This document shows positions 30,331-59,775 of a stretch of 64,000 nucleotides of DNA, piece after piece. The notes beneath the pieces are model-generated. The model was not told where the DNA came from, did no database searches, and saw only the letters and a list, made by a program, of their open reading frames with translations. The stretch spans positions 192,001 to 256,000 of the forward strand of contig CAWHXY010000006.1 in the NCBI GenBank assembly GCA_963833575.1, read 5' to 3'. Numbering within the stretch: the first letter of the stretch is position 1; each line of letters opens with the position of its first letter. Position numbers and translations under genes: made by a program. The stretch comes from Candidatus Bathyarchaeota archaeon. GTDB taxonomy: Archaea; Thermoproteota; Bathyarchaeia; Bathyarchaeales; Bathycorpusculaceae.

Positions 30331-31908
30331 TTATTCTTTGAACATTGGTTTATCTTGGATGTATTCCTTGCCTGTTCTCAATGCAATTTCGGCTTTTGTC
30401 AACTCGCTTCCTAAGTAAGCGGAATGATCCATCCTCGAAATTAAACCCAACTCGATAATCTTCCTGTATATGCCGTCGGCAGTTTTGCCCTTAACAATTA
30501 ATGTGGGGACTTCTAAATCCGTTAACGTTAAATGGATAGCTACAATGCTTTGCTTTTCCCGGTCAACAAAAATTCTAAAAGATCCCTGCTTATCAATTTC
30601 CGCAGATCCCTCATTGTTCTTGATTGTCAAAATATGCGTACTTTCCTCAAGTTTTTTGTTGTATTTCTCTTCTCGGTTCCTCTTGTCCTTCAAAATAAGC
30701 AGATCTATCCCAAGGTCTTTGGGAAAAGATCCCCGCTTTTTTGCCAAAAACATCATTTTTGATGCAGCAACCTCTTCTTTGATGCTTCCTTGTGCCTTGT
30801 CACTTTTCTGTGTAGCCAACATCATATCTGCGCCGATTTCTGAGCAGAGCCGTGCAAGCAAAGCGTTGACACCTACAGAATCCGCATCCATAAGTTCAGT
30901 AACATTAGAAACCCCAACGAAAAGCGGAACATCTGGATTTCTCTGTGCAAATTGTCGGAAAGCAAGAAATGATCCTAAAACGTCTAAGGGGTCAAGAATC
31001 AAGTCAGCAAAAACATTCTCTGTGCCAAATCTCTTGGCTTTAGCAATTACTTGTTCTAGCAGTTGCACGCGTTCCTCGGGTTTCTTTGGGAAGCATCCTT
31101 CACGTTGGTTACTGGGGATTGCTACCACGGCAACATTGCTTGGAAGAGGTGCTATTGCCTCTATGTTTCCAGCGTCAACACTAAGTATCAATTCGGCACC
31201 GGCAGAAACAGCTGCTTTAATTTCCTCTGGATCAAGCGAATCAATACTAATAGGAACCGACACTACATCTTTTACTGCGGCAACAATCCGCTTGGCGTCT
31301 TTTGGCCTGCTTTCACCAGCAACCATTCCAACATCAATAACGTCCGCACCAAGGGCAACATACTTCTTAGCTAACCGCTGAATCTCTCTGTTACTCAGCA
31401 AAGCGGCATCAACTATTTCAGCCAACACACGCATGGGAAAATCTTTTCCAACAGCTAAATTTTTAATTTCCATGTTCCCTGGTTCTTTCAGGAGGGTTTC
31501 TTTGTTTTCTTCAACTTTCAATATTTCCTCAAGAGCCTTCTTCTGAAGTTTTTCTCTGAGTAATTCGCATGCAGGCACAACTGTTGAAAGCGTCACTTCA
31601 CCAAGCATTTCGAGAACAGTTGGTAAGTCAGCAGCATATTGCGGACCCTTAAACGCTGGAATGCCAGTGGTTTTGAAGATAACTGACGTATCGCCTCGAA
31701 CTAGCCCTGGAACAAGAATTAAATCAAAATCGTTCACTTTCGCTTGCTTTAAAGATTGACTAATTGTTTGAGGCGTCAAAAAAGCCGCCACTGGAACATT
31801 CAGCACCATAACTTTGGTTTCAATTTGGCTCTGAATGGCGTAATATTCAACGGTTTCTTGTGCAAGTAAACCAGTGATTAACAGCACCTTCACTGCCGTT
31901 GCCTCCAC
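30331..31908 (-). CDS. Dihydropteroate synthase-like protein with C-terminal DUF4346-like domain
   Basis: VLAEIVDA, GADVIDVG, PISIDS, NVTELMDADSVGVNALL, DHSAYLGSELTKAEIAL..GK.YIQD. Confidence 0.85.
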   Translation of the reverse strand: MEATAVKVLLITGLLAQETVEYYAIQSQIETKVMVLNVPVAAFLTPQTISQSLKQAKVNDFDLILVPGLVRGDTSVIFKTTGIPAFKGPQYAADLPTVLEMLGEVTLSTVVPACELLREKLQKKALEEILKVEENKETLLKEPGNMEIKNLAVGKDFPMRVLAEIVDAALLSNREIQRLAKKYVALGADVIDVGMVAGESRPKDAKRIVAAVKDVVSVPISIDSLDPEEIKAAVSAGAELILSVDAGNIEAIAPLPSNVAVVAIPSNQREGCFPKKPEERVQLLEQVIAKAKRFGTENVFADLILDPLDVLGSFLAFRQFAQRNPDVPLFVGVSNVTELMDADSVGVNALLARLCSEIGADMMLATQKSDKAQGSIKEEVAASKMMFLAKKRGSFPKDLGIDLLILKDKRNREEKYNKKLEESTHILTIKNNEGSAEIDKQGSFRIFVDREKQSIVAIHLTLTDLEVPTLIVKGKTADGIYRKIIELGLISRMDHSAYLGSELTKAEIALRTGKEYIQDKPMFKE

Positions 31909-32540
31909 ACATCTACTCGCCGAATCAAATCAGCCATAACCAGCGAATAAGGTGAGTTTGGAGCAACCCTATTTACCACTTTATTGCAGTCGTCAATCAT
32001 TTCCAAAAGGTGGACGTTTTTTCTCTCTGCCTGATCATTTCCTAGCGCCTTAACGCGGGTTGCATGTATAATTGCTTCAAGCGTCAGCGACATGGCGCGA
32101 CATTGAACTTGTGGATATTGCGGCTTTGCATTTATTAGGTCTATCTTAAACGTAGCTTTGGTTTTCTGTGAATCAATCGGCCAAAGGTTGTCAATTGAAA
32201 TATCAATTGTGGCATCAGCTGAACACATTTTGGGAGCGTTAACAATTTGTGATTTCTCAAACCAGTCTTTAGGCAGCTTGCCATCGGGATTTGCTTCTTT
32301 GAAAGCTGTTTTATAGAAAAACGCTATGTCACTTGTTAAGTTTATAACCGCACATCTGTTTGCCACAATATTGCTGCAGGTTGCTGTTGAATTGAAAAAG
32401 TCTATGGTCAGGTGTTTTTCGTCTTCCATTATGATTCCCATGGGTGCTGCATTCGGTGTTTTATCTTTGTTGTAAGTAGAAACTATTGCTTCTGCAATTA
32501 TGCCTTTCAAGAAACCCAAATCAGATAATTTCGCCATCAA
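31890..32540 (-). CDS. DUF447 family (flavin-reductase-like split barrel) protein
   Basis: EAIVST....PNAAPMGI, LEAIIHATR; usual neighbour of DHPS-like genes. Confidence 0.8.
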   Translation of the reverse strand: MMAKLSDLGFLKGIIAEAIVSTYNKDKTPNAAPMGIIMEDEKHLTIDFFNSTATCSNIVANRCAVINLTSDIAFFYKTAFKEANPDGKLPKDWFEKSQIVNAPKMCSADATIDISIDNLWPIDSQKTKATFKIDLINAKPQYPQVQCRAMSLTLEAIIHATRVKALGNDQAERKNVHLLEMIDDCNKVVNRVAPNSPYSLVMADLIRRVDVWRQRQ

Positions 32541-32657
32541 ACCAGCCCGAGCAACTTAAGAGGTTGAAAGCATTTTGTTTCAATCGAATGTAAAATTTCA
32601 CAGTGCCATAATAAAGTTTTGCCAACATGACCTGTGTGCATGAAATTATTGGCTGAT

Positions 32658-32819
32658 TGTTAAAGAAGAACAACAACTGGTGGTAGCTCCGGGTGTTGTT
32701 CTTCTCTTGAAAGAAGAAGGAGGACAATCGTGCACAGCACCGCGCCTCCTTCTTCTCTGGATTTGTTGAAAGAAGAAGAAGCTTCGCAGGGGCGCACTTC
32801 TTCTTCTACCTCTTTTTTT
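32658..32819 (+). repeat. Array of three tandem hairpins sharing an AGAAGAA/TTCTTCT basal stem, with variable upper stems; putative ncRNA
   Basis: Arms 32664-75/32694-705, 32712-23/32745-56, 32771-81/32797-807; each preceded by TT(G)AA; T7 tract at 32813-32819. Confidence 0.75.
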
Positions 32820-32960
32820 GAGTTGACTGTTAAACTTTTCATTGTTGAAGAAATGCTTAAGACTAATTCGGGATGTGCCTTTGCTATGTAAGGTTTTTAA
32901 AGGATAAGACGAGTATTTTTATAAGAAATTTTACTTATTATTTTGGTGGTTTAAAACTAA

Positions 32961-34337
32961 ATGGCAATTAAAGTAGCCTTGGTTTACCCTTATTTTCACC
33001 CTGCAAATGATAATTCGATCTTTCGTTTTCCACCTTTAGGTCTCGGCTACATTGCAGCTGCTTTGAAAAAGAAAGGCGTTGACGTTGATTTGATTGATTG
33101 CACCTTTCTGCGGTTTAGCGAAGCAGTTGAACGGGTAACTCGTGCCAAACCACAAATTGTGGGTTTCTACTCGATGTTTTCGATGAAGAAAACCACTTTT
33201 GAGCTTGCAGCAGCTATCAAAAAAAATAGTGAGGGCAATCTTAGTTTGTTTGTGGTTGGCGGTCCTCTGCCTACTTGGTCGCCTGAAAGCTTTCTTGACT
33301 TCTTTGATGTGGTTGCTATTGGTGAAGGAGAAGAAACTATGGTTGAGCTTTCGAGCTGTGTTGCGGAAGGGATTGGATTTTCAGGCGTAAATGGACTGGT
33401 TTACAAAGAGGGAGAACAATTTGTTCGAACTGAGCCGAGAAAATTTATTGAGCAGTTGGATAGCTTAGCTTTTCCTTCGCGCGAATTGTTTGATAACGAA
33501 TCATACAAAAAGTATTACCGCGACAGGTTCGGCTACTCAACTTCTGCCATGATTACTTCCAGAGGTTGCCCCTTTTCATGTGACTTTTGCAGTCGACCAA
33601 TCTTTGGCGCAGAAATGAGAAGCCGCTCAGTGGGAAACATTGTTGATGAGGTTGAAGAAATTGCCTCTTTGGGTTACGATCGGGTTTGGTTTTCGGATGA
33701 CTGTTTCACGTTAAACCGCCAGCACATTTTAGCCGTTTGCAGTGAACTTGTCAAGCGTAAGGTGGATATTAGCTGGGAATGTTTATCGCGAGTAGATACG
33801 ATGGATGCGGAAGTTGCACAGGGCATGAAACGTGCGGGTTGTCTAAGGGTTTTCTTCGGAATTGAATCAGGTAATAACTCTGTTTTAGGTTTAATGAACA
33901 AACACATTACAACCCTGCAGGCAAAAAAAGCTGTTTACGCGGCTAAAACTGCTGGATTAAAAACTGGAGCATTCTTTATTATTGGTTACCCAGGAGAAAG
34001 TGACAAAACAGTATTAGACACTGTTCGTTTTGCTTCAAGTTTACCGCTTGATTACTTATCGTTTACCTTGCCTTATCCCATTCCTGGAACTCCACTCTAT
34101 GAACGTGTCAAAGACAATGGCGTTGCAATTGAGGATTGGGAAGAACCCAAAAATTACCGTTTAGTCAGGCATAAGCTTCTATACGCTTCAGGCTTCAGCG
34201 AAGGAAAGTTGAAGTTTGCTATAGGAAAAGCAAATGCACAGTTTTATGGCAGGCGATATCTTGGGAAATTTGGGTATAAGGTGGTGGGTACGCCGTTTGA
34301 GCGTTTAACTGATTTCACATTTAAGATGATGCGTTGA
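32961..34337 (+). CDS. B12-binding radical SAM protein (class B methyltransferase-like)
   Basis: PPLGLGYIAA, VVGGP, GEGE, TSRGCPFSCDFC, FGIESG, FIIGYPGE, PIPGTPLY. Confidence 0.92.
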   Translation: MAIKVALVYPYFHPANDNSIFRFPPLGLGYIAAALKKKGVDVDLIDCTFLRFSEAVERVTRAKPQIVGFYSMFSMKKTTFELAAAIKKNSEGNLSLFVVGGPLPTWSPESFLDFFDVVAIGEGEETMVELSSCVAEGIGFSGVNGLVYKEGEQFVRTEPRKFIEQLDSLAFPSRELFDNESYKKYYRDRFGYSTSAMITSRGCPFSCDFCSRPIFGAEMRSRSVGNIVDEVEEIASLGYDRVWFSDDCFTLNRQHILAVCSELVKRKVDISWECLSRVDTMDAEVAQGMKRAGCLRVFFGIESGNNSVLGLMNKHITTLQAKKAVYAAKTAGLKTGAFFIIGYPGESDKTVLDTVRFASSLPLDYLSFTLPYPIPGTPLYERVKDNGVAIEDWEEPKNYRLVRHKLLYASGFSEGKLKFAIGKANAQFYGRRYLGKFGYKVVGTPFERLTDFTFKMMR

Positions 34338-59583: not shown

Positions 59584-59775
59584 CAATTTTATTTTTTCTT
59601 TTATTAGCTCCTCACAAAAGTTGAAATAAACCCCGAAAGGGTTACAATCTTTTTAATTCTTACCAGCTATTTTATTATCACATTCAAAAGTTCCGAGAGT
59701 TAAGAACAGCGAAACGACTTGACTGGAAACTTCTTATCCTTCCAACGCCAATGAGACCTGACAGGAAGAGAGAAA

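Follow-up and report, generated by a model that had tools for sequence, protein, structure and literature searches.

The three-hairpin array described here lies between two divergent genes in a stretch of DNA of 64,000 nucleotides from a Candidatus Bathyarchaeota archaeon (the window), and is probably one copy of a non-coding, non-autonomous dispersed repeat that behaves as a DNA-level element in a few related sediment archaea, a sub-clade of one Bathyarchaeia genus. It is an archaeal case of a known kind, the small dispersed intergenic hairpin repeat, and the best reading by analogy would place it closest in kind to REP/BIME- or BOX-like DNA repeats. The parts of the array are as follows.

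Positions 32664 to 32705, plus strand: hairpin A, arms of 17 nt, 88% complementary
Positions 32712 to 32756, plus strand: hairpin B, arms of 12 nt, 100% complementary
Positions 32771 to 32807, plus strand: hairpin C, arms of 11 nt, 100% complementary
Positions 32658 to 32705, plus strand: unit A (leader TTAAAG and hairpin A), arms AGAAGAACAACA.., head core of GTAGC type; type A alignment of 44 copies
Positions 32707 to 32756, plus strand: unit B (leader TTGAA and hairpin B), arms AGAAGAAGGAGG/CCTCCTTCTTCT; type B alignment of 42 copies
Positions 32766 to 32807, plus strand: unit C (leader TTGAA and hairpin C), head inverted in the orthologous copy of the relative G009; type C alignment of 44 copies
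Positions 32808 to 32857, plus strand: 3' tail of the element, family consensus ..ACCTGTTTGGAGTTAACTGATTAGCTTTCAAGTATTGAAG.., from an alignment of 15 copies with flanks
Positions 32616 to 32857, plus strand: match of the window copy to positions 7-245 of a family profile made from 15 genomic copies (nhmmer, C6:224616-224857, E = 2.8e-58)
Positions 32660 to 32842, minus strand: open reading frame of 60 aa, regarded as a side effect of purine/pyrimidine runs free of stops rather than a gene

Directly 5' of every unit in the array stands TTAA or TTGAA. The shared AGAAGAA/TTCTTCT base that the initial annotation had seen in the three hairpins is far above chance: the pattern AGAAGAA-N15-45-TTCTTCT matches four times in the window (the three hairpins, one of them in two registers) against 0.02 expected, a count reached by none of 100 shuffles, and RNA folding of positions 32650-32825 gives three separate hairpins on the plus strand (-66.7 kcal/mol, z = -4.0) as well as on the minus strand (-68.6 kcal/mol, z = -6.5). 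The inner stems, described as specific to each unit yet paired (CAACA/TGTTG, GGAGG/CCTCC, GAAG/CTTC), are indeed so among the three units. Two finer details hold in part. The T7 tract said to close the array is present in the window copy but does not extend to the family, since other copies read ACCTGTTTGGAG and the G009 orthologue has no T run. Similarly, the ACA/AGA/ACA that follows the hairpins on the minus strand can be traced to the TTGAA-type linker plus the arm of the next unit, but the B-C linker is variable among copies and often has no ACA. A coding reading of the array was rejected, given the low-complexity peptide of the 60-aa frame and the open frames on both strands of nearly all copies: of the 16 copies examined in the host genome, 15 have several frames, on either strand, with stop-free stretches of at least 50 aa. 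Furthermore, linker lengths vary among copies by non-multiples of 3. Protein-level conservation of this frame with loss of the pairing, and an array both unique and untranscribed, were the two outcomes that had been set beforehand as counting against the initial description, and neither was found; the frame is not a conserved gene, and the array is one of 19 loci in its genome.

These loci came from the genome-wide pattern search that the initial annotation had proposed and from sequence comparison in G000, the window's own genome, with C4, C5, C6, C7 and C8 among its contigs. The pattern gave 47 forward matches against 3 for the reversed control pattern, and BLAST together with a profile made from the copies (nhmmer) gave 42 hits, which fall into 15 full and 4 partial loci. 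Alignment of the copies reveals a modular unit of about 230 nt with a 5' part, hairpins A, B and C in fixed order, and the tail. The 5' part is weakly conserved, and a subset of copies carries there the box ..GCGA..CGATTTATC..TTTT... The order A-B-C was seen in all 21 copies with three typed hairpins and is consistent in all 28 two-hairpin copies. Every one of the 19 loci is intergenic (0/19 overlap an ORF of at least 110 aa), and the neighbouring genes are functionally unrelated, encoding pelota-like, TFB, ABC ATPase, hybrid-cluster, RNase H, DUF1697 and other proteins (Pfam-backed only in part). Copies stand between divergent genes in 6 of 15 cases and several end 74-146 nt before a start codon; some are located between convergent genes and others right behind stop codons. 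All six copies between tandem genes are co-oriented with those genes, and 12 of 15 copies have the same orientation as the gene that follows. A polarity toward genes was nevertheless rejected, as the six-of-six bias of G000 is not seen in relatives, where the 40 of 44 loci with both neighbours called comprise tandem arrangements in 14 co-oriented and 11 anti-oriented cases, the rest having divergent (8) or convergent (7) neighbours, a tally that may count shared sites more than once and uses crude ORF calls. The two largest contigs, C4 and C7, together carry ten full copies, nine of them on one strand, which is not significant at such small numbers, and no usable GC skew or gene-strand bias was found on C4/C7 for a link to the replication strand. 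Three short contigs from one DNA sequencing run also match the element, and their flanks are those of other (paralogous) copies.

The window copy is an insertion, with two filled genomes (G000 and G009) and five empty ones. Its surroundings are laid out as follows.

Positions 31890 to 32540, minus strand: DUF447-family gene, the left neighbour (Pfam PF04289, E = 3.5e-17)
Positions 32590 to 32626, minus strand: left block conserved in filled and empty relatives, probably the DUF447 promoter region (7 orthologous intergenic regions aligned)
Positions 32627 to 32884, no strand assigned: insertion at its largest extent, in G000 and G009 and missing from five relatives with the same DUF447/radical SAM pair; the flanks align on both sides
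Positions 32885 to 32960, plus strand: conserved right block with an A/T-rich box and a GGTGGT motif, probably the radical SAM promoter and ribosome site (same 7-region alignment)
Positions 32961 to 34337, plus strand: B12-binding radical SAM gene, the right neighbour (Pfam PF04055, E = 2.8e-26; PF02310, E = 2.7e-17)

An orthologue of the DUF447 gene, which has a pterin-binding gene farther to its left, was found at 30 loci, and the divergent radical SAM gene is also kept at 7 of them. The region between the two genes measures 420 nt in G000 and 422 nt in G009, and 229, 231, 232, 228 and 173 nt in the five empty genomes; the flanking blocks align in all seven, and the difference of about 200 nt is the element. 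In the G009 orthologue the stems of hairpins A and B are mismatched without compensation. The GGTGGT about 10 nt before the radical SAM ATG, together with the A/T-rich box, may represent the local promoter and ribosome-binding pattern. G000 has 13 B12-radical SAM paralogues, eight of which are clustered at C4:1.02-1.07 Mb (C4:1020726-1069818). Four of the 13 adjoin a copy of the element, but an association with these genes was rejected, given the inconsistent geometry and the location of two of the four in one duplicated cluster. Two rSAM-element-DUF71-like groups occur 4 kb apart.

Other sites also differ between relatives in the presence of the element. For example, at C4:150142-150627 (locus L123:643-1128) a carbamoyltransferase gene and a DUF1697 gene, which abut or overlap (0-9 nt) in four relatives, are separated by an insert of 486 nt with the element that runs precisely from the stop codon of the first to the ATG of the second. 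The borders of this insert read ..GAAATAG and ATGACG.., with no duplicated bases in comparison with the four empty relatives, and its 3' 211 nt resemble nothing elsewhere in G000. Conversely, C4:283912, C7:610773 and C6:251605-251726 are empty of the element in G000 and filled in relatives. The last of these falls in the window (positions 59605-59726), where the intergenic region has a full copy between the same flanks in G111, G115 and G058, and where G105 is probably filled too, judging from one flank.

The distribution of the family is narrow. The window copy, used as query, matches 6 of 31 relatives (G000 counted), all from the same genus, and none of 12 genomes from 11 other genera in the order; across the genus, 14 of 120 genomes match (E <= 1e-5). 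Six genomes besides G000 have at least 6-8 scored matches each, with scoring confined to six candidates per genome, and whole loci as query give 13-21 matches in each of five such genomes, a number that includes flanking genes. The exact A-B junction pattern recovered 16 stretches from 185,579 species genomes, ten of them with the whole element and all ten in records titled Candidatus Bathyarchaeota archaeon. The remaining six stretches, five of them bacterial and one from Bathyarchaeota, match by chance. The same pattern gave 0 stretches in viral contigs and 19 in metagenome contigs, 5 of the latter with the whole element.

Comparison of the hairpins themselves bears on how the family evolves. 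In total, 130 hairpins from 60 copies in ten genomes were typed by alignment to type motifs, because the arms of different units cross-pair in whole-region MFE folds. The heads had initially been described as unrelated, a view that does not hold across the family, as they are type-specific in all copies (A ..GTTGGTGGTAGCACCGGG.., B ..AATCGCAGGTAGCACCGCG.., C ..CTTCGCAGGGGCACAC..) and those of A and B are homologous. The sequence GTAGCACCG is common to hairpins A and B, as is GCACCG(G/C)G, the conserved 3' half of their heads, and some relatives have a B head that equals the A head. It follows that all three units arose from a single hairpin by duplication and divergence. Pairwise identity averages 0.84-0.97 for the arms, 0.78-0.90 for the 3' half of the heads and 0.51-0.74 for their 5' half. 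Conservation of the arms and of the 3' head half would also be expected under selection on structure or on a binding motif, and it counts against the reading as a DNA repeat.

The heads are reversed relative to the scaffold of linkers, 5' part and tail in 8 of 125 confidently typed hairpins, distributed over six copies; the partial copy C7:272353, with its uncertain scaffold orientation, was left out of this count. All three hairpins are reversed at C4:600286 and B only at C8:141340. Inversions separate orthologues at three sites, namely hairpin C in the window copy versus G009, hairpin A at C4:492274 versus G009 and G040, and hairpins B and C at C4:600286 versus G009. From such in-place inversion of a head it is clear that both arms of a hairpin interact on the level of DNA. 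Moreover, in a tree without branch-support values, built from the short core sequences after flipped heads had been turned back, copies group mostly by genome and not by orthologous site. G000 has nine sites in common with G009, G040 or G115, and at each of them some paralogue within G000 is more similar to the G000 copy than every orthologue is; at five of the nine even the median G000 paralogue beats the best orthologue. One copy in G115 has 0.97 identity to a paralogue against 0.69-0.79 to its orthologues, with orthology taken from one flank only. The pattern is not seen in G009, whose copies look decayed. Copies within a genome that are more alike than orthologues point to gene conversion between copies or to repeated replacement at the same sites.

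Several known classes of repeat were compared with the family. REP elements and their BIME clusters belong to proteobacteria, where they are mobilised by RAYT transposases, Y1 enzymes of IS200-IS605 type with genes flanked by the repeats. According to passages of PMC3733652, REP sequences are palindromes with a GTAG or CGTC tag at one end, outside the pairing, and REP/BIME elements have been associated with recombination and mRNA effects in passages of the same source and of PMC3184786. The likeness, as far as these passages describe it, lies in short extragenic hairpin palindromes with many dispersed intergenic copies, side-by-side clusters, variability among related genomes and G-T pairs in the stems (PMC3733652; PMC3184786). 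The differences are substantial. Hairpins A and B are flanked by TGAA/CTTG and TGAA/CTGG with no GTAG/CGTC tag, and GTAG occurs only at hairpin C, on the minus strand and overlapping the stem, in 9 of 15 G000 copies. There are about 15-20 copies per genome (19 loci in G000), whereas REP often number hundreds; the units are 37-45 nt long and form three distinct modules in fixed head-to-tail order, whereas REP units are 20-40 bp and mostly alternate in orientation; and REP units are G+C-rich, in contrast to the 11-17-bp A/G-rich arms found in this archaeal host. The only match to an IS200/IS605-type Y1 transposase in G000 (C7:653945-654303) is a broken fragment with two frames and one TGA. The family profile finds no element within 2 kb of this Y1_Tnp match, and only 3 of the 7 element-rich genomes have a Y1 hit, compared with 42 among the 120 genomes of the genus. 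A link to RAYT/IS200 mobilisation was rejected on these results, and strict REP identity was rejected on the untagged A and B, the missing RAYT, the low copy number and the fixed order.

The BOX element of pneumococci has a modular boxA-boxB-boxC architecture. BOX in Streptococcus pneumoniae is described in passages of PMC3184786 as non-autonomous and transcribed, and the likeness to it extends to distinct modules in fixed order, non-coding character, dispersed intergenic location, strong folding, chance ORFs and the lack of an enzyme of its own. The family thus has the features of a BOX-like modular intergenic repeat, a likeness in kind with no relation in sequence, and it differs from BOX in its archaeal host and in three modules that are all homologous hairpins on one base; head inversion and same-site homogenisation are documented for the Bathyarchaeia family. 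The miniature inverted-repeat transposable elements known as MITEs are similarly small, non-coding and multi-copy, present or absent at orthologous sites and uneven among close relatives. MITE identity was rejected, with no terminal inverted repeats beyond shuffles in 15 copies (best inverted match between the two ends scoring 4-10, reached by a fraction of 0.05-1.0 of shuffles) or in the 486-nt insert, and no target-site duplication at C4:150142-150627 against four empty relatives. A possible CAAAGC/CAAGC pair in G040 (L074) is too weak to count as a target duplication, and no parent IS element was found for the family. An H/ACA guide RNA consists of a hairpin with an internal pseudouridylation pocket and a K-turn or K-loop, followed by a conserved ACA box. 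In the family the stems are continuous with no two-sided internal loop, the A-B linker is TTCAAG on the minus strand and the B-C linker often has no ACA; the H/ACA reading was rejected, there being no pocket and no conserved ACA. The small inversions associated with hairpins in non-coding plastid DNA (for example PMC6824564) resemble the head flips in that a loop between inverted-repeat arms turns in place, recurrently and irrespective of the sequence around it, but they affect single hairpins at fixed plastid loci with no dispersed family, and the likeness is therefore to the inversion process only. A search of the literature on small dispersed hairpin or palindromic intergenic repeats in Bathyarchaeia or Bathyarchaeota found nothing in print, and the initial statement that the array matches no catalogued element class holds.

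Taken as a dispersed DNA repeat, the element would be a unit of about 230 nt, with up to about 480 nt inserted at one site, made up of the 5' part, three homologous hairpins A-B-C and the tail. The window copy would have been inserted between the divergent DUF447 and B12-radical SAM promoters before G000 and G009 split. The element would be gained or lost at orthologous intergenic sites, apparently tolerating every intergenic context and both orientations, and the likeness of copies within a genome may stem from gene conversion or from repeated replacement at the same site. The complementarity of the arms may be kept mainly by DNA processes acting on palindromes, such as arm-to-arm templated repair, loop inversion and conversion between copies, and not by selection on an RNA fold. 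Spread could proceed via host recombination or some enzyme acting in trans, and effects on neighbouring genes would probably be secondary. Against the DNA-repeat reading stands the result that neither a mobilising enzyme nor any target duplication or terminal repeat came to light. It also counts against this reading that some copies carry a TTTATC box in the conserved 5' part which could be a promoter.

The alternative that survives best, although we consider it unlikely, is a transcribed structured RNA. The array would then be a three-hairpin small RNA or a portable leader or UTR module, read from the plus strand and affecting the stability, processing or translation of neighbouring RNA, and the DNA repeat behaviour would be the spreading mode of an RNA gene family. 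Very stable folds speak for it, as do stems far better kept than the 5' halves of the loops and two conserved T-G pairs in the apical stem of hairpin A, which pair on the plus strand only (G-U 92 versus 24) and hint at an RNA read from that strand. Some copies have the TTTATC box roughly 60 nt ahead of hairpin A, and the co-orientation of G000 copies with the next gene is also a point in favour. Furthermore, the C4:150142 insert splits abutting genes and leaves the downstream DUF1697 gene intact, so that read-through or a promoter within the insert would be required. Against these points, covariation within hairpin types is not above controls (two double-sided pair changes per type, with 1-5 in slid controls), and G-U pairs over the 130 hairpins number 150 on the plus and 154 on the minus strand, with the counts for hairpins B and C favouring the minus strand, hence no single strand is favoured. 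In-place inversion of a head would turn the loop into its complement, relatives have no orientation bias, and the G009 orthologue decays with no compensation. The window element is also situated between two conserved promoter blocks and thus probably outside both likely transcripts.

Rfam likewise offers no match at gathering score, even with permissive E-values; the best of 11 hits, mir-283, scores 23.3 bits against a cut-off of 50, and all are far under their cut-offs, being weak chance hits to miRNA and plastid hairpin models. A tRNA-like origin was rejected, as ARAGORN finds 0 genes at positions 32300-33200. The notion of a constant handle with variable cargo, which lay behind the RNA option in the initial annotation, is not supported by heads that are family-specific and homologous, by the Rfam and covariation results, or by the 386 head 13-mers (both strands, 43 G000 heads), which have 4 hits in the rest of the genome against about 16 expected; with matches below chance, a guide or decoy role was rejected. 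Three options had been proposed, namely a processed guide- or decoy-like multi-unit RNA, repeated protein-binding stems and DNA cruciform sites. The guide- or decoy-like RNA is the one that falls away, and the DNA-level options fit better with presence or absence at orthologous sites, head inversion and occurrence in every intergenic context and orientation. Arm-to-arm templated repair in DNA palindromes can give rise to pairing differences between units, which are therefore not by themselves proof of an RNA.

A more speculative and distinctly improbable proposal is that some undescribed hairpin-directed copy-and-replace process in Bathyarchaeia uses the family as its substrate, installing or overwriting the element at fixed intergenic sites with no terminal repeats or target duplication, or that, in place of this or together with it, the array gives transcripts that are cleaved into hairpin RNAs of unit length with variable loop 5' halves. 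The copy-and-replace process, if true, would explain both the genome-specific versions at orthologous sites and the head flips. We regard it as more doubtful still that a dimeric protein, DNA-binding or architectural, recognises a palindromic head core (GGTGCACC or GTAGCACCG) and that the hairpins serve as its double-stranded DNA sites, forming upstream regulatory or insulator arrays between promoters. The 3' head half common to A and B agrees with this, a near-palindromic site would tolerate inversion, and the copies between divergent genes, together with those ending 74-146 nt before a start codon and hence upstream of the core promoter, are placed as such a role would predict. However, the neighbouring genes are functionally unrelated, the purine/pyrimidine arms of 11-17 bp would be superfluous for such a site, copies also occur between convergent genes and right behind stops, most of the genus lacks the element and keeps the neighbour genes and promoter blocks, and no candidate protein was found.

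Changes in gene content next to some copies suggest one further reading, the least probable of those considered, in which copies are recombination seams where gene blocks are inserted, deleted or exchanged via a site-specific enzyme or plain homologous recombination. At C5:98005-103030 (L154:706-5731), two direct sister copies flank a 4.6-kb block (C5:98235-102826) with genes for an Mrr-type restriction nuclease and an SNF2-family helicase, just upstream of a TFB gene, and G009 has a single copy and no block at the same flanks. Indels or broken gene order are likewise found beside the copies at C4:600286 and C8:141340 in comparison with G009. Several points stand against this reading: most copies, the window's included, lie in collinear regions with no block change, no integrase or recombinase is linked to copies, and breaks at repeats in fragmented MAGs (320 contigs in G009) may be assembly errors; any dispersed repeat that recombines would look alike, with no dedicated function needed. 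In G009, two near-identical copies without hairpin B (L063, 3006-3129; L066, 771-882) each join a flank mapping to C8 (about 141 kb) with a flank mapping to C6 (74-83 kb), which in G000 is a block of genes for secreted or surface proteins. Such junctions could reflect rearrangement at the repeat, or else the fragmented assembly was joined wrongly there.

To summarize, the array is probably one copy, in an archaeal genus, of a kind of small dispersed repeat with hairpins that is well known from bacteria (REP/BIME, BOX, ERIC and MITEs). The practical value of the finding is modest at present. It carries a caution, as paired differences between adjacent hairpins mimic RNA covariation and can arise in DNA palindromes, and such repeats break MAG assemblies and mark gene-block change. 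Genome comparison alone reveals three processes: insertion, both between divergent promoters and into the junction of an operon; the flipping of hairpin loops in place; and homogenisation of copies within a genome.
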